Source: an uncultured Bacteroidota bacterium (GTDB lineage Bacteria > Bacteroidota > Ignavibacteria > UBA10030 > UBA6906). Taken from it: DNA of 64,000 nt. Location: assembly GCA_963700635.1 (NCBI GenBank), contig CAVOYH010000004.1, forward strand, positions 256,001 to 320,000, read 5' to 3'. Under the pieces are notes generated by a model, which made no database searches, was not told the DNA's origin, and saw only the letters and a list, made by a program, of their open reading frames with translations. The translations under genes were made by a program, and so were the position numbers. Positions 4,751-19,005 of the stretch are shown one piece after another (position 1 is the first letter of the stretch; every line of letters starts with the position of its first letter).

Positions 4751-4903
4751 GCCTCACGTCACACTGCGGGGCAATCGGGGAAGTCAGGTTTCGTACAACA
4801 CCGGAGCAGTGTTCTGTGTCCGATTGCATGAATGCTCCGGCCTATTCATGATAAGCCGGGCCATGGTTTGACAGTCCGAGGTAATCACAAGGGGTGAACC
4901 CGT

Positions 4904-5332
4904 ATGCCCAGAGTCCGACTTAATCTTCCGGAGCGCTATCTTTTTACAACAGAGATAACACTTCGAGTGTCCGACATCAATTACGGCGGACATCTCGGCA
5001 ATGACGCGGTGCTTGCGCTCGCGCAAGAAGCACGGATGCGTTTCCTGAGCTCCCGTGGCTGGTCGGAACAGAATGTAGCCGGCGTCGGGATCATCATGGT
5101 CGACGCAATTGTGGTGTACCGGTCAGAAGCGTTCTACGGTGATGTGTTGACGATAGATGTCGCCGTGGAAGATCTGCAGCAGTCGGGATGTGATTTTCTT
5201 TTTCGTATGGTGAACAAGGTTTCGGGGAAAGAGGTCGCTCGCGTGAAGACGGGCATTGCTTTTTTTGACTACACAAGCCGCCGTCTGTCCCCGATGCCCG
5301 AGGCATTCCGGGCCCGATGCAGCCAGGAGTGA
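4904..5332 (+). CDS. Acyl-CoA thioesterase (hotdog fold, 4HBT/YbgC-like)
   Basis: LRVSDINYGGHLGND...QEAR motif; 142 aa. Confidence 0.9.
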   Translation: MPRVRLNLPERYLFTTEITLRVSDINYGGHLGNDAVLALAQEARMRFLSSRGWSEQNVAGVGIIMVDAIVVYRSEAFYGDVLTIDVAVEDLQQSGCDFLFRMVNKVSGKEVARVKTGIAFFDYTSRRLSPMPEAFRARCSQE

Positions 5333-5363
5333 AATTCCTTCTTTAAAAAAGTGTGATGAAGCC

Positions 5364-5392
5364 TTGACAGCAATTCCCATCAATGGTATATT
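5364..5392 (+). promoter_or_regulatory. Sigma70-type promoter TTGACA-N17-TATATT with extended -10 TG
   Basis: TTGACA 5364-5369, 17-nt spacer, TATATT 5387-5392 preceded by TGg. Confidence 0.7.
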
Positions 5393-5503
5393 AAATCACT
5401 AACAACAGTACAAAGAAGGTTTTCGTGTCCCGATGGATCCCCAGACTCTGGAGATCCCGAGGGTTCTGAGGGTACCCCTGCACACTGCTCTTTTCAGAAC
5501 GAT

Positions 5504-12577: not shown

Positions 12578-14560
12578 CTACCTGCACGCCGGTCGTGTCG
12601 CCTCCAGGATAAAGTCGACGATGGGCCCGGGATCCGCAAGACTGTGCGGATGATGTCCGACACCGGGTTTCCGGATAACGGTAATCCGCCCACCGGCAGC
12701 GAGGACCCGCCTTTCAAAAGGATCAGTATTCTCCTCCGGCGGCACGACAAGATCCGCGTCACCACATACGTGGATCATCGGAAACCCCCCTTGTGCCAAC
12801 TGGTCCGCCAGATCGATCGGGCTTCCCGTAAATGCCAGGGCCTCTTCCTCCGTCCGGAGACCGAAATTCTGCTTCAAGCGCTCCCACTCGACCGGGTTCC
12901 CGTTACTTTTTCCCTTCCCGCCGGGCCAGCTACGTACGTCGAGAACGGGTGCGTCGGCATACACGCATGCCACCCGTTCCGGATATACTGAAGCCCACCG
13001 GTACATGTAAATCCCGCCCCGGCTGAGCCCCTCGAGCGTAACTTTTGTGCACAACCCGGCACCAACGAGCATCCTGTAGAACCGGTCCCAGATCCCGATA
13101 GCCTCCGGATTCCCGTAGAGTTCCGCCACGTCACAGAAGGCTACATGGAACCCATTCTTCAGGAGGGCAACCTCCGTTTGTGGCTCATGCTCCCAAAACC
13201 TCGAACGCCAGATCCACGGCCGTCCATCTGCCGGAATGTGGGGCCGGACAATTCTTGCCGTGCGCCCCTCAAAAAGGAATTCGCAACAATCATATCCATG
13301 GAAATCACTGTGTATGCCGATGATACCCGCCCGTTCGAGAATGTCGGATTGGGGAAGTGTGCTTCCGGGAAAAGGCTCCGGGAGATTTCCACCTGCCTCT
13401 TTGTCCTTGAGGAATGATCGGAAGCCTGCCACTCGGTGGACCGTGATCAAGTTGGAATCGTGGCAGTCGTGTGCGCCGCCCATTCCATCATCAAATGCAG
13501 TTCGCGAGATTGCAACAAGATCATCCCCTTCAAAGAACCAATCGATGTACTGGAACCCTGTGCGTTTTACATCCTTACTTTCAAGGATGACGTCATGAAT
13601 CTGCCAGGATCGGAGGTCGGACGAAGAGACCAGAACCGCCGTGTTCCGGGTGCGTTCGACGTGGTTGAGGCCCCTGTAGCGGGGGAGGGGGTAGTTGGTC
13701 AGAGACCAATACCGTCCGGACCGCTCATCGTAGCGGACTGTAAATTTCTTGCAGGCGCCGGGGAGAGCGATCGTCGGCATTTCCGGATCCGGCGTGACCG
13801 TCGTGCCGTCGTCCGAAACGGCAAGAACGCAGGCAATATTATCTGTTTCCGTGTGGCACCTGAGAATATTAACGAGCCGTTTCTCTGGCGTAAGCAGGAT
13901 ATTCCCTTCCAGCCACGTGGATCCGGGCAGCCCCGTACGCGGGTGGGGGAGTTCATTGGAAAACGTCCAGACGGTTCTGTTCAGGAGGTCCGCGTCGGCG
14001 GGCGCAGACATCACGAAGCTTCGAAAGCTCCCCCACGGAAGGTTCGGTTCATACCGTTCCATGGCACGCCATACCCGGCCATTGTGCAGAAGCATGGGAA
14101 CCGGCGCACAATGGTACCGGGACAGACTGTCTCCCGGAATGAGCAAGCCGCTAGCCGCGTCCGATGGTTCAGTCCAGCGTATACCACGATCAGTCGATTT
14201 GCGAATGACCGCGTTACCATGTGGTCCATGGACGCCAATCAAGTACACCGCATTCTTTAGAACATGGAGCGACGACCACCGTTGTCCTGACAGCACGCTG
14301 ATTTGCTCCCAATGAGCGCCCTTGTCGGCAGAACGGTACACATATGTTTCGAACCCTCTTTCACCTACAGTGCCGAATCTGTCATGGGTGGCCAGATAGG
14401 TCCCGTCCGGTAGAAGGGTAATGGACGGGGACCCAAGATACACACCGGAGCTTGCAGGTGAGTGGGCGATAACGGTGCCCGGAACGAGGGATAGGTTCTG
14501 TGCGATGGTAGCGGCATAGAGGACGGGCACACAGAAGAGCAGCATGAGTTTTTGGAGCAT
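12578..14560 (-). CDS. Sialidase-like BNR beta-propeller fused to an alpha/beta-hydrolase (esterase)
   Basis: Signal MLQKLMLLFCVPVLYAATIA-Q (start moved from 14890 to 14560). Asp-box repeats SADKGAHW, STDRGIRW, SDDGTT, SSDLRSW. C-domain with GLSRGG, GDAD..VP, GHHPH. Confidence 0.8.
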   Translation of the reverse strand: MLQKLMLLFCVPVLYAATIAQNLSLVPGTVIAHSPASSGVYLGSPSITLLPDGTYLATHDRFGTVGERGFETYVYRSADKGAHWEQISVLSGQRWSSLHVLKNAVYLIGVHGPHGNAVIRKSTDRGIRWTEPSDAASGLLIPGDSLSRYHCAPVPMLLHNGRVWRAMERYEPNLPWGSFRSFVMSAPADADLLNRTVWTFSNELPHPRTGLPGSTWLEGNILLTPEKRLVNILRCHTETDNIACVLAVSDDGTTVTPDPEMPTIALPGACKKFTVRYDERSGRYWSLTNYPLPRYRGLNHVERTRNTAVLVSSSDLRSWQIHDVILESKDVKRTGFQYIDWFFEGDDLVAISRTAFDDGMGGAHDCHDSNLITVHRVAGFRSFLKDKEAGGNLPEPFPGSTLPQSDILERAGIIGIHSDFHGYDCCEFLFEGRTARIVRPHIPADGRPWIWRSRFWEHEPQTEVALLKNGFHVAFCDVAELYGNPEAIGIWDRFYRMLVGAGLCTKVTLEGLSRGGIYMYRWASVYPERVACVYADAPVLDVRSWPGGKGKSNGNPVEWERLKQNFGLRTEEEALAFTGSPIDLADQLAQGGFPMIHVCGDADLVVPPEENTDPFERRVLAAGGRITVIRKPGVGHHPHSLADPGPIVDFILEATRPACR

Positions 14561-14956
14561 ATCGATTGCCCTGTCCGGGGATTTGTGGGGGAAAAATGAC
14601 ATGCCGGTCAATCTGCGCGCATGCGCTATGCAATTCCGGAGATGGCCTCGCGCGCGATTGCGGTGTGATATTGCATGAATATAGCAAAAATTCCGGGAGA
14701 GTAAAACGAGGATCGTTTCCGGAAGGTGAACGGCACACAGATGGCCAAATGTACGCATCCGGGAATGGGGTTTGCCCTCGATTTCCGGGTGAAAGGGGAC
14801 TCTCTGAGATGGCATCCCGCATGATATATAATAAGAGCTGAGCTTTGAGGGGTCCGGTCTGTTGAGTCTCTCCCTGATTGTTCTGCTCATTCATGTGGCC
14901 TCGATTCGTGTGAGGCGTGCTTACAAGTATGAAATTCATTATTGTGGGAAGAAGCC

Positions 14957-15139
14957 ATGACATCTCCGGATTACGTACACATTCTCAAACTCGACAAAAT
15001 AGCATTGAAGTCAAAAACACGGGTGGATTTTCTTGAGGCCGTGAAGACGCGTTTCCAGTTTGCCAGGAATCTTGGCGTGGAGGAGAACTTCCCCTATTTT
15101 GTTGACCAGGCGTGGCTGATCTTCGGGGATGGCGAATAA
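14957..15139 (+). CDS. 60-aa hypothetical microprotein, copy A
   Basis: 49/60 residues identical to 15859-16047, with many synonymous third-position differences; shared upstream GGGAAGAAGC.ATG. Confidence 0.8.
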   Translation: MTSPDYVHILKLDKIALKSKTRVDFLEAVKTRFQFARNLGVEENFPYFVDQAWLIFGDGE

Positions 15140-15159
15140 TCCGGATGCGGAGTGACAGT

Positions 15160-15768
15160 ATGGAACGTAAGGAAGAATTCCGTTTGACTACGATCCCGGA
15201 CGGATTCTATTGGTTTAACGAACCGGCGCGGTACAAGTTTGGAAACGGTTTGGAAATATGTTCGGGTGAGGGAACTGATTTCTGGCAAAACACTCACTAT
15301 GGTTTTCAGAAGGATGATGGACATTGTCTTCTGACGACACACCGCGGCGACTTCACTCTCACGTGCCATGTGGAATCTCGTCCACGGGAACAATACGATC
15401 AGTGCGGCCTGATGGTTCGTCTTGATCGGGAGAATTGGATTAAGGTATCAACGGAATATGAGAATCAAGAAATCAGCCGGCTTGGTTCGGTGGTGACCAA
15501 TCTCGGATATTCCGATTGGGCTACCCAGGATATCCCTTCGACACACACGGCAATGTGGTACCGCATCAGCAAGAGCGGAAGAGATTGTTTGCTCGAGAGT
15601 TCTTCTGACGGCAAAATCTGGATGCAGCTTCGTATGACACACCTGCATAAGGCGTCAGAACAGTACGACATCGGCGTCTATGCATGCAGCCCGAAGGGGA
15701 AGGATTTCTGGTGCAGATTCACGTCGCTGGAAATCTCCAAGAGTGCGTGGGCGCGCACAGCGGGTTAG
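15160..15768 (+). CDS. DUF1349 domain protein (concanavalin-like)
   Basis: W.NEP, TDFWQ.T.YGF..D.GH, YDQCGL, WIK.S.E, LGSVVT..GYSDW, G.YACSP motifs; ATG 15160. Confidence 0.9.
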   Translation: MERKEEFRLTTIPDGFYWFNEPARYKFGNGLEICSGEGTDFWQNTHYGFQKDDGHCLLTTHRGDFTLTCHVESRPREQYDQCGLMVRLDRENWIKVSTEYENQEISRLGSVVTNLGYSDWATQDIPSTHTAMWYRISKSGRDCLLESSSDGKIWMQLRMTHLHKASEQYDIGVYACSPKGKDFWCRFTSLEISKSAWARTAG

Positions 15769-15858
15769 AATCTCTCTGATTGCTATTGAGCACCTATATT
15801 ACATCTATAGTGTAGTGGGTACGGGTGGCTTTGAGGCGCAGTAAACGGGGAAGAAGCG

Positions 15859-16047
15859 ATGGCATCACCGGACTATATACAAATCCTAAAACTCGACAAG
15901 ATTGCCATGAAGTCCAAAACACGGCTGGATTTTCTCGAGGCGGTAAAAGCACGTCTACAATTTGCCAAAAATCTCGGAGTGGAAGAAAACTTCCCCTATT
16001 TTGTCGAGCAGGCGTGGCAAATTTTTGGCGACGGCAAACCATCATAA
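15859..16047 (+). CDS. 62-aa hypothetical microprotein, copy B
   Basis: Paralog of 14957-15139. Confidence 0.8.
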   Translation: MASPDYIQILKLDKIAMKSKTRLDFLEAVKARLQFAKNLGVEENFPYFVEQAWQIFGDGKPS

Positions 16048-16072
16048 AGACACACTACAACCCTTTTTCTGT

Positions 16073-16102
16073 AAAGGCCCCTCCTGTCCAGGAGGGGCCT
16101 TT
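16073..16102. terminator. Hairpin between convergent genes (likely bidirectional terminator)
   Basis: AAAGGCCCCTCCT-gtcc-AGGAGGGGCCTTT, perfect 13-bp stem. Confidence 0.75.
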
Positions 16103-16134
16103 GCGTTCTACCGGGACGGCTGATCACATTTCGT

Positions 16135-19005
16135 TCAGCGAAGCAGCACCAGCTTGCGCACTTCCGTGAATGTTCCTGCTACGATCCTGTACAGGTAGAT
16201 CCCCGATGCAAGCTCCAGGGGTTCGAATCTGGCTTCATGCAAACCCGCATCCTTCGGGCCATCAACCAGCGTGGCAACTGCCTGCCCCGCGATGGAGTAG
16301 ATCGTGAGTGTGACGTGTGCCGGCCGGGCCAGCGTAAACCGGATAGTCGTGGATGGGTTGAACGGGTTGGGATAATTCTGGCTGAGGAAGAAGCTTTTCG
16401 CGAGATGGTCATCCCCTTCTACAACCTGAACCGACGAAATGCTGAAAGCCGTACTGTTCGAAAAAAGAGTCGTGTCCTCGCGAATCTGCACGCGGATCGC
16501 ATATCCGGAGTCAGCCACGAGACCCGTCGCAGGCACCTTCCAGACATAACGGCCTGTATTTTCGACGCTGTCGGCAAGCCTTGTGACCACTGAACCGTTG
16601 CGCAACAGATGGACATTTACCCTTTCCCCGGTATTTGACTCCCAGCGGACGACGACGGTAGATCCGAACCCGATGGTATTTCCGTCGTTCGGAAAAAGTA
16701 CACTCACATACGGCATTGACATGGTGAAATTCGCCGGGCCAGACCATGCGGTCATACCCGATTCATTCCAGAGCCGGACCCTCCAGAAATACTGCGTCCC
16801 TGCGACTCCGTTAGTCCAGGAGAACGATGAACTGCGGAGAGTCGAGTCATTGAGAACAAGGGCCGTGAACAACGAATCAGTGGCGATGTGCAACTGGGAG
16901 CCCGTGATCCGGCCGTAGGAACTCCATTGCAGGGTGACGGGCTGTGTCTGGTTGACCTTCGCCCCTGGCAGTGGTAGCACGAGCGTCGGGAGGCCGGGAG
17001 CCGTTACTTCTGCCGGGATGCCCACGACAAACTCTCCGAACTGTGTCGTCGTTGCGGTAATACTCTCCCCGGTGGGGCTGAACGACGTACCAAGAGGAAT
17101 AAATGTACCGCTCCCCTCCGTCGGGCGGTAATAAACGACCGTCTGGTCCTTCCGGGTGGACGAAGCGAGTGTCGTGCTGTCGAATGTCACTGTCGCAGTG
17201 AACGCAGTCATCCCTATCTGCCGGATTACCCACCGTTGTCCCTGCAAGAACGGGGCGACACCCGCAAAATCCGGATTTACAGGAGATCCTGCATACCGTC
17301 TGACTGTCACGCTGTTGTAGCCGCTGGTGATCTGCGAGAAATTGAGAGCCACACCTGTCTGCACGCTGTCCCCCTTACGAAACGAGTAGGTGACGCCAGG
17401 CACAACATCATACATGGGCACGACAGCAGCCGGGAGGAGAAGAGAGCTGAACACATACTTGAATGCACGATAACTCACTGCGGGATCAAGGAACCGCATC
17501 TCAATGGCAATGGATTTGTCGGGGCGGACCTCCGTGAGACACTGGGGTCCTACGCCCGTGAGAAGCGAAGAACCCCACCCAATCAGCGTGTTGCCGTTTG
17601 GGAGCCGCTGCACCGAACCGCGGGTGGGTGCAAAAATGTCCGGCGTGTGACGGTATTCCCACACCATCGTTGCGGTTTTGCTGACCTGATCCACTGCATA
17701 CTCCACTGCACGCGAGACTTTTTCTGGATGAAGATTCCCGTTGTCGAACAGAAGAAAATTGCCGTTCGGCAGACGTTCAAGGCAGTGTTGATACGTGAAA
17801 TAGGTCGGCGCGTTTGCCGCGTTCTCTCCGATAAAAGTGAAGTCGTTCTTCTTGCCCCCCATGCGCCAGAGAATATCCCCCGTCATCCTGTTGATCTTGA
17901 CGATGTCGCATGTGTTCCTGAAACAGGCAAGGATGTTGCCGTCACCATCCATGTCGTAAGCATTAACATGAATGTAGTCGAATGCTGAAGCGGTGACCGG
18001 CATGTAGGTATCGGCAATCGGGATGTAATCCCAGCTGCGCCACTGGAAGACCACCTGCCGGTTCAGGTCCAGTTCCTGGAGTATGGATCCGACCACAATG
18101 GCGTTCGGGTTGCCATTTGCCACCAGCGTGCTCATGTCCACGTACTGGATGTCGTATGCATGCAGCAGGATGTGGCCGTTGGCGAGCATGCGGAAATCAT
18201 GGCTGTCCGCATCGTAGCCATTTCCTGCCCGCACACTGTCCACATCTGTGAGAGTCGAGTCAACGATCCGGTGTACCGTTCTGCTCCCACCTGCGTAACC
18301 CCACTGGGAGAAGCCCTCGGCATAGGAAAGGAGCCCGTTCGGTTGTTGCTTAAAATCGTATGTGTGTCCGTGTGTTTCTTTGTGTCTGACAATCTGGCCG
18401 GCATTGTCAACGACAAAGACGTATTCTCCGAGGCCCGCGCCGACCTCTGTCGTCGAGAGGAGAAAATACCCCGGGGCAGGGCTGTTGACCGTATCCACCT
18501 GAATACGCGGGAGGTCGGTCGGGAGGGAATCAAGTCCCGCGATCTTTGCACTTGCGGGAGCGCTGCCGGACGTTCTTGTGATGACCTCCCCGTTGTCCGT
18601 AACGATATAAAGATCCGAGAGGGGAGTGCGCTGTGGCGTCGTGGTGAAGGAAAATCGCAAAGGAGCAAGTGTTTGTCCGGAGGATCCGTTCACTGTCCCG
18701 GCAAAAACCACGTCCACCCGTTCGTTCTCCCGGAATGGGGCCTGCGGGGTGAAGATCATGGTCTGGCCATCATCGGACAGTGTTGCGGTTACGGCGAGGA
18801 CACCCGATTGTTCCCCCCGGATTTCTATGACGTCAGACGAAACGGCGGAGCGAGCGATCTGAGCGTCAGCCCGGAGAATTATGTTGGATTCCCGCGAGAC
18901 GAGAGCCGATCCGGGCTTTGGCGAGAGATAAATGATGTTCTGGGTGGCTGCCTGCTGTGAAAAAAGGAACAGCAGAGCGGGGAGTAACCATCTTCCGGTC
19001 TTCAT
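16135..19005 (-). CDS. Aryl-sulfate sulfotransferase (ASST-like) with N-terminal Big_5-like Ig domain, extra C-terminal domains and T9SS CTD
   Basis: DSHDF, FQWRSWD, DYIHVN, TYQH, FDNG, SRAVEY, GSVQRLPNGNTLIGWG; QNYPNPFNPST. Confidence 0.85.
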   Translation of the reverse strand: MKTGRWLLPALLFLFSQQAATQNIIYLSPKPGSALVSRESNIILRADAQIARSAVSSDVIEIRGEQSGVLAVTATLSDDGQTMIFTPQAPFRENERVDVVFAGTVNGSSGQTLAPLRFSFTTTPQRTPLSDLYIVTDNGEVITRTSGSAPASAKIAGLDSLPTDLPRIQVDTVNSPAPGYFLLSTTEVGAGLGEYVFVVDNAGQIVRHKETHGHTYDFKQQPNGLLSYAEGFSQWGYAGGSRTVHRIVDSTLTDVDSVRAGNGYDADSHDFRMLANGHILLHAYDIQYVDMSTLVANGNPNAIVVGSILQELDLNRQVVFQWRSWDYIPIADTYMPVTASAFDYIHVNAYDMDGDGNILACFRNTCDIVKINRMTGDILWRMGGKKNDFTFIGENAANAPTYFTYQHCLERLPNGNFLLFDNGNLHPEKVSRAVEYAVDQVSKTATMVWEYRHTPDIFAPTRGSVQRLPNGNTLIGWGSSLLTGVGPQCLTEVRPDKSIAIEMRFLDPAVSYRAFKYVFSSLLLPAAVVPMYDVVPGVTYSFRKGDSVQTGVALNFSQITSGYNSVTVRRYAGSPVNPDFAGVAPFLQGQRWVIRQIGMTAFTATVTFDSTTLASSTRKDQTVVYYRPTEGSGTFIPLGTSFSPTGESITATTTQFGEFVVGIPAEVTAPGLPTLVLPLPGAKVNQTQPVTLQWSSYGRITGSQLHIATDSLFTALVLNDSTLRSSSFSWTNGVAGTQYFWRVRLWNESGMTAWSGPANFTMSMPYVSVLFPNDGNTIGFGSTVVVRWESNTGERVNVHLLRNGSVVTRLADSVENTGRYVWKVPATGLVADSGYAIRVQIREDTTLFSNSTAFSISSVQVVEGDDHLAKSFFLSQNYPNPFNPSTTIRFTLARPAHVTLTIYSIAGQAVATLVDGPKDAGLHEARFEPLELASGIYLYRIVAGTFTEVRKLVLLR

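Follow-up and report, generated by a model that had tools for sequence, protein, structure and literature searches.

What do two paralogous genes of about 60 codons do on either side of a DUF1349 gene in an uncultured bacterium of the Bacteroidota, and do the three genes belong together? The locus lies within a stretch of 64,000 nucleotides (nt) of contig CAVOYH010000004.1 (assembly GCA_963700635.1, class Ignavibacteria), hereafter the window. Here, copy A (60 amino acids, aa; ATG start, TAA stop) occupies positions 14957..15139 of the plus strand, followed on the same strand by the DUF1349 (concanavalin-A-like) gene at 15160..15768 (202 aa) and by copy B at 15859..16047 (62 aa, i. e., the family's 60 residues plus Pro-Ser; ATG start, TAA stop). 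A sequence-only reading of this arrangement had seen in A and B an undescribed small-protein family and possibly a heterodimer, or regulators or partners of the DUF1349 protein. The explanation we favor, at a probability of roughly 0.55, is a stand-alone small protein that was ancestrally under sigma-54 control and is possibly stress-induced, with the pair in the window derived from a local duplication and the DUF1349 gene as a passenger. In the following, G000 denotes the genome of the window, while G, L, and P numbers denote the other genomes, loci, and proteins compared.

The assignment of both copies as paralogous genes is based on their open reading frames (ORFs), on BLASTP, and on the traces of selection. 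The two proteins align without gaps, with 49/60 identical and 55/60 positive residues (E 3e-39), and the underlying DNA forms a repeat of 196 nt with 79 % identity (14946-15141 versus 15848-16043, spacing 902). This repeat begins at the purine-rich leader GGGAAGAAGC, ten bases 5' of each ATG (14946-14955 and 15848-15857), so that the frames, their paralogy, and the common leader described in the sequence-only reading are all confirmed. The 38 base differences within 180 nt are distributed over codon positions 1/2/3 as 7/2/29, and the Nei-Gojobori method gives a dN of 0.082 and a dS of ~2.0 (saturated), hence a ratio of the two (omega) of ~0.04, which is not near 1. When 38 substitutions were placed at random 5000 times, the mean number of residue changes was 25.5 and the minimum 17, as compared to the 11 observed. 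The earlier proposals of purifying selection and of an old duplication kept at the protein level are thus borne out by the low omega, the third-position excess, and the saturated synonymous sites. Antisense ORFs overlap both copies and are by-products of this codon-level constraint.

The two copies are moreover not alone. A word-indexed search retrieved 76 clusters (at the 90 % identity level) of ~60 aa that are 63-100 % identical, and scans of genomes and metagenome contigs yielded 25 and 71 related loci, respectively (96 altogether). A length of exactly 60 aa is shared by 86 of the 90 complete members, of which 88 come from these loci and two are A and B. Eleven columns are invariant (M1, Y6, L10, L12, D13, A16, A36, F45, V49, A52, and W53), and conservation reaches 90 % or more in another 19. 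The family-wide median omega amounts to 0.18 (1888 pairs), and copies from different genomes are saturated at synonymous sites. Against this background, one may still ask whether the frames are untranslated and the repeat is a conserved RNA or DNA element that is open by chance. Such an element would fit the lack of annotation, since all named members carry the label "hypothetical protein", but we regard it as extremely improbable: 29/38 differences at codon position 3 with an omega of 0.04, a length fixed at 60 codons in nearly all members, and the use of TGA, TAA, and TAG as stop codons all speak for translation, as does the confident protein model obtained from the alignment, whereas Rfam gave no match at E ≤ 1 for window positions 14700-16300 and RNAalifold found no pairs in the upstream regions (see below). 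A and B are protein-coding paralogues of a lineage-restricted, unannotated 60-residue family under strong purifying selection.

What kind of protein this family represents could not be read from databases. For copies A and B, Pfam-A and NCBIfam returned no family at E ≤ 1, PADLOC returned none, and the best PHROGs match had an E-value of 0.16; a sequence search of the PDB with the family yielded no match with E < 0.28, and from the ESM Atlas no usable match emerged. An AlphaFold2 model built from a 74-row alignment (pLDDT 91.8, pTM 0.79) places helices at residues 6-9, 12-18, 22-39, and 42-56, and the family is thus predicted with high confidence to fold into a compact four-helix unit. Foldseek searches of this model against PDB and BFVD found nothing at E ≤ 0.001. 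In a wide VIA-align search, no row was prominent and the peak Z was 5.1, far under the level that the tool regards as meaningful for helical bundles; the generic small bundles of the PDB reached here (the C-terminal domain of AFV1 ORF140, the helical domain of PNPase, and designed mini-proteins) share with the family three to four short helices, yet even the best of them superimpose only at 2.6-4.0 Å over 56-62 residues. A hydrophobic stretch is absent (maximum 15-residue Kyte-Doolittle mean of 0.5), cysteine occurs in only 5/63 distinct 60-aa members, and by sequence the family would be cytoplasmic. The earlier description as an undescribed family is supported.

The sequence-only reading had also considered that the peptide might be part of some longer protein already known. 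When 1.84 billion representatives, irrespective of length, were searched exhaustively with a HMMER profile, ten proteins scored at E ≤ 0.001, namely six family members of 44-90 aa and four long repeat or low-complexity proteins with weak matches. Because nothing else emerged from a search that covered all lengths, the peptide is not such a fragment.

Two of the long proteins, P0081 (1083 aa) and P0083 (1066 aa), were nevertheless considered more closely. Both consist of 10-12 helical repeats of 71-90 residues around the pattern ..AKERLDWATSIGAKTQFP.PY.., and at the end of P0083 there are LysM domains. No Pfam family matches the repeat. Their likeness to the small proteins is a weak profile match of ~43 residues with a common K-R-L-[FW]-A / G / F-P pattern, while their length of >1000 aa sets them apart. 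The 60-aa protein could then be a free-standing version of the helical repeat unit of such long, secreted, LysM-tailed proteins and work with them on the cell envelope. This idea draws on the eight stretches matched in each protein (summed E 1.9e-15 and 2.1e-6), on the LysM domains in one of the two, and on an hhalign alignment of 43 columns around K-x-R-L-x-[FW]-A..[LI]-G....F-P (E 2.7e-4, one comparison). However, the hhalign probability is 41 % at 23 % identity, the profile E-values are inflated by the summing of composition-biased repeats, the 60-aa proteins are devoid of a signal peptide or hydrophobic stretch, and a LysM gene is not a regular neighbour. We therefore consider such a free-standing repeat unit with a role at the envelope improbable.

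The distribution of the family is narrow. Of 301 sampled genomes of the class, only G000 and one other contain the family. Across the order it was found in 17/277 genomes, all of which belong to the same GTDB family (f1; 16/67 genomes other than G000), while the eight other GTDB families of the order were without it (0/209 genomes). Within the genus, one of the five other genomes (G477) has it. The titles of the named contig records give Ignavibacteria, Ignavibacteriota, or Bacteroidota metagenome-assembled genomes (MAGs). Two or three matches per genome were seen in 9/17 cases and a single one in 8/17; likewise, the contig scan placed two loci in 9/16 assemblies. In the genome of the window there are only A and B, as no third copy was found.

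Equally telling are the genomic neighborhoods. All 96 related loci carry one copy each, and paralogues are never adjacent outside the window. Around the 25 genome loci, 138 ORFs with a minimum length of 95 aa lie no more than 2.6 kb away; comparison of these with Pfam revealed no recurrent adjacent family. In G477, the single copy has a beta-lactamase-fold gene on one side and a gene for a GDSL lipase on the other. The family is a stand-alone gene in changing neighborhoods, often with two unlinked copies per genome.

Some neighborhoods deserve mention in their own right. In 5/25 genome loci (L005, L006, L013, L021, and L023) an MlaE-MlaF-MlaD operon is located within 5 kb of the small gene; distance and orientation change, so that the vicinity of one paralogue lineage to the Mla operon looks like loose synteny rather than an operon. 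G206 harbors a segmental duplication of ~2 kb (L011 and L012 at C8:23614 and C8:2672374, on opposite strands and 2.6 Mb apart). The duplicated segment comprises a DUF4440 gene, a 116-aa gene, and the small gene, the two copies of which differ by a dS of 0.05. The 116-aa gene, which comes after the small gene, has only sub-threshold matches to CS and Hsp20 (E 0.0055 and 0.017). Furthermore, a simple pattern pick revealed a conserved block of ~55 nt (TGATCCAGGAGAAGGAGACTAACGCGCTCTCCGCTTCCCCC.TTGTCAATTGTCC) just after the stop codon in 13/67 distinct downstream regions (L011, L012, L014, L016, L020, L050, L053, L055, L059, L064, L067, L079, and L087). It contains a short GGAGAG/CTCTCC hairpin without a T-run, gave no Rfam match at E ≤ 1 (L011, positions 4800-5400), and is lacking at both window copies. 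Read-through of the stop codon into this block was considered and rejected, given the frame-breaking indels in the block and its absence from the window copies.

Could this scattered occurrence reflect a small selfish or mobile cassette, made up of the upstream block, the 60-aa gene, and the 3' element, that spreads within f1, so that its conservation would mirror propagation instead of a function for the host? The patchy distribution (1/5 other genomes of the genus and 16/67 of the family), the variable neighborhoods with several unlinked copies in many genomes, the flanks that, in a subset of loci, are conserved 5' as well as 3' of the ORF, and the near-identical second copy in the duplicated segment of G206 would all be expected of such an element. 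However, no transposase, integrase, or recombinase family was present among the 138 neighbor ORFs, and 2.9 million viral contigs yielded 64 pattern matches but no relative; there was no PHROGs match below E 0.16. Moreover, the saturation of synonymous sites between genomes argues against recent spread, and one paralogue keeps its loose synteny with the Mla operon. Mobility as the cause of the conservation accordingly strikes us as unlikely.

Are the three genes of the window then a functional cassette? The identity of the middle gene, at least, is as previously claimed: it matches PF07081 with an E-value of 1.2e-62 and 211.3 bits (cut-off 32.4) over profile positions 1-178 of 179 and thus encodes a full-length DUF1349 protein. 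At E ≤ 1e-20, it has 1869 homologues, some of which are named DUF1349 or Ree1-like ("regulation of enolase protein 1") in their sources; the best one other than itself is 74 % identical, and the few close homologues with a name come from Anaerolineae and Latescibacteria MAGs. In the part of the literature covered, no paper carried the term DUF1349 in its title or abstract. The likeness to PF07081 is confined to this bracketed gene, and no relation of the two small proteins to DUF1349 could be detected. Further weak DUF1349-like (ConA-like) domains occur in G000 at C1:123468-124898, C1:137240-139864, and C5:295597-295950; these sit in very large ORFs (467-1293 aa) unrelated to the locus.

For one functional cassette, be it with an A:B heterodimer or with A and B as regulators or partners of the DUF1349 protein, one may cite the tight packing on one strand, with the DUF1349 ATG 20 nt past the stop codon of copy A and no terminator-like site in this gap or anywhere before 16073 in a consensus scan, as well as the purifying selection on both copies and the presence of two or more paralogues in 9/17 genomes. 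Comparison with the relatives nevertheless makes it quite improbable. A tblastn search with the window protein (E ≤ 0.01) detected a DUF1349 homologue at 0/96 related loci, and Pfam found none among the 138 neighbor ORFs. Since most of the 88 complete loci have flanks of at least 900 nt (59/88 upstream and 52/88 downstream), an adjacent DUF1349 gene would have been seen. In addition, the window protein found no match in G065 (same genus) or G206 (same family), and the single copy of G477 is located in a different context without DUF1349. Because neither DUF1349 nor a second tandem copy occurs at any of the 96 loci and the two relatives have no match, the A-DUF1349-B bracket is a feature of G000 alone and not a conserved partnership. 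We recommend abandoning the idea of a DUF1349 partnership, the most striking element of the sequence-only reading. As for the heterodimer, an obligate A:B pairing is unlikely because 8/17 family genomes show a single match.

How did the pair arise? The nearest relative of copy A is copy B (83 % over 59 positions), followed by others at 80 %, while members in other genomes reach 90 % identity with copy B, so that A has diverged faster than B. Maximum-likelihood analysis of 72 distinct coding sequences groups A with B as sisters (UFBoot 96), beside a clade with the G477 copy (92). Their synonymous divergence (pS) is 0.70, as compared to 0.47-0.74 between either copy and members elsewhere. The duplication is therewith old, and the order of events is insecure because only 39 synonymous sites are available. 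A comparison with G065 and G206 could not reconstruct the state before insertion, as the flanking genes have no syntenic counterparts there: the upstream one is matched only in its C-terminal 260 residues, at other places of these genomes, and the downstream one matches many T9SS-tail paralogues.

A lead on the regulation of the family is found upstream of the genes. The most conserved non-coding stretch there reads ..ATTGCTATTGGGCAC-CAATG-TTGC.. and matches the -24/-12 pattern of sigma-54 promoters, whose consensus is TGGCACG-N4-TTGCW. This sigma-54-type element upstream of the family is new here. The fact that non-coding sequence is kept at all implies constraint, because synonymous sites between the loci are saturated. 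For scoring, ten fixed positions were used at sites with GC located 48-62 nt from the ATG. Among 71 distinct upstream regions, 22 scored at least 8/10 (null 1 %) and 16 at least 9/10 (null 0.2 %); GG and GC are both intact in 22/71, the other 49/71 having diverged. RNAalifold predicted no pairs in 19 upstream regions, which, together with the lack of Rfam matches, points to a signal in the DNA and not to a folded RNA. G000 itself encodes sigma-54 (rpoN, a 499-aa frame matching PF04552, Sigma54_DBD, at E 3.7e-56).

In the window, this signal has decayed. The upstream block of copy A (14860..14956, plus strand) is homologous by alignment to the family's conserved upstream region (GAGTCTCTCC..GATTG) and has the purine-rich leader as its 3' end, but is without a recognizable -24/-12 element: over 200 nt, no sigma-54-like score exceeds 7/11, a chance-level value reached at a distance of 182 nt. 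The block of copy B (15766..15858, plus strand), which begins at the stop codon of the DUF1349 gene itself, contains a decayed -24/-12-like element GAGCACCTATATTAC (15788-15802), where AG/AC has replaced GG/GC as it has at its relative L049, and then the leader. If the family depends on sigma-54, the window copies thus no longer do, because the GG/GC core is lost.

The same promoter layout recurs in front of heat-shock genes, which are usually controlled by a repressor or by a factor of the sigma-32 type. G000 has seven intergenic GGCA[CT]-N5-TTGC sites, and two of them are located before dnaK (C1:217608, L140/L142; 51 nt from the ATG) and hsp20 (C6:122543, L141; 57 nt; PF00011 E 1.9e-20). Comparison with further heat-shock loci (L142-L149, L152, L155, L166, and L172-L174) showed that such elements, at a distance of 49-65 nt from the start codon, precede dnaK and hsp20 in genomes across f1. 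In a survey of 30 dnaK loci, four of which were dropped for want of a start, 9/10 f1 genomes carried the site at 8/10 or better (null 2.7 %); elsewhere, the proportions were 3/3 (f30), 1/1 (f3), 1/3 (f5), and 0/8 (f29). Orthologues of hsp20 were identified in 3/5 further f1 genomes, and all three have the site at 9-10/10, with G000 at 9/10. Repeated GCCAATATGGC-like palindromes are present further upstream of the dnaK and hsp20 promoters. Together, these promoters look like those of a sigma-54-driven heat-shock regulon. Within the literature that our search reached, no paper was found on sigma-54 in Ignavibacteria, nor on control of dnaK by sigma-54 and an enhancer-binding protein in such bacteria.

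From these elements, the course of events that we favor can be sketched as follows. The ancestral promoter of the family would be of the sigma-54 type (TGGCAC-N5-TTGC, ~55 nt before the ATG), laid out as at dnaK and hsp20. Within this lineage, the module of promoter, leader, and gene would have been duplicated locally to give the arrangement in the window, and the DUF1349 gene, which has no match in the two relatives searched and sits exactly between the two modules, would be a passenger and not a partner. Both window copies, having lost the GG/GC core, would now be transcribed in some other way, the DUF1349 gene probably together with copy A, in a set that ends at the hairpin at 16073-16102. 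As regards function, which we infer from sequence, the protein is most likely a small binding protein, regulated and possibly induced by stress, which contacts another macromolecule, rather than an enzyme, because of the heat-shock-like sigma-54 layout and the family's median isoelectric point (pI) of 9.5. The basic character of most members hints at a nucleic acid or an acidic partner as ligand; as to a helix-turn-helix or other nucleic-acid-binding fold, there was no Pfam match and no clear fold match, and only the basic pI (median 9.46) points there.

Several observations weigh against this account. The sigma-54 core is intact in only 22/71 upstream regions and missing from both window copies, and the loci are related, so that the counts of upstream elements are not independent trials. 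Genome-wide, the strict motif is not enriched (4 sites versus 4.2 expected in G000; 21 versus 16 in the control for G206). The palindromes of dnaK and hsp20 were not consistently found before the small genes in the 18 regions inspected, which share no palindrome, and the heat-shock-like 116-aa neighbor is confined to one subclade of 5 loci. Copy A is acidic (pI 5.7, as compared to 8.0 for copy B), unlike most of the family. Finally, the sisterhood of A and B rests on a 180-nt alignment and could be explained by shared residues or composition; it is insecure because the pS between the two is no lower than to members from other genomes.

In a bolder version, the 60-aa family would be a lineage-specific product of a sigma-54 regulon for heat shock or stress that is as yet undescribed and that includes dnaK and hsp20 with their palindromic sites; the protein would be a new, stress-induced modulator with a fold absent from the PDB, and its copies in the window would have escaped this control and captured a foreign DUF1349 gene. 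We hold this for conceivable but doubtful. Proteobacteria offer a parallel, where the phage-shock genes and ibpB of Escherichia coli are small proteins of sigma-54 stress regulons; alike is the short protein behind a -24/-12 promoter of the type that here also precedes dnaK and hsp20. However, the 60-aa family has no sequence or fold similarity to any of the proteobacterial small proteins, no activator or upstream activating site was found for it (the 138 neighbor ORFs include no Sigma54_activat gene), and the window copies lack the promoter core.

Around the three genes, the window offers some further features. The GC-rich hairpin (16073..16102) between copy B and a convergent, arylsulfotransferase-like gene (16135-19005, minus strand) is a perfect inverted repeat with 14-nt arms of 100 % complementarity. 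It is as strong as had been proposed for the end of the cassette (-33 kcal/mol, z -5.5 versus 200 shuffles). On the plus strand its T-tail is TTTGCGTT only, and the consensus terminator scan lists just the inner 5 pairs; it is likely a two-way intrinsic terminator. Other promoter types did not stand out from chance: a sigma-70 consensus scan found 3 sites versus 2.2 expected, one of them 125 nt before copy A (14804-14832) and not above chance, and the Bacteroidetes-type -7 motif TAnnTTTG occurs 15 times in the window versus 15.1 expected, with none on the plus strand before A or B. The GC content of 14700-16050 is 47-51 %, that of the flanks 55-60 %; the small genes in other genomes have likewise ~45-49 %, which tempers the low-GC signal of this stretch. 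Upstream, on the minus strand, lies a 770-aa ORF (12578-14890), the true start of which is probably ~110 codons later, at the signal-peptide-like MLQKLMLLFCVPVLYAATIAQ. It appears to be a fusion of a BNR-like and an alpha/beta-hydrolase part (both Pfam matches below their cut-offs), because its homologues in G206 and G065 (frames of 356-380 aa) match only the last ~260 residues (83 % and 65 % identity).

Taken alone, the family is one more lineage-restricted group of small hypothetical proteins. For annotation, its use is that gene callers label such members "hypothetical" at best, while here selection and 96 relatives establish a 60-codon gene as real. The wider interest comes from the promoter lead: if it is true, f1 bacteria run their heat-shock response through sigma-54 and an enhancer-binding activator, and this response would have gained the small protein as a newly recognized component.

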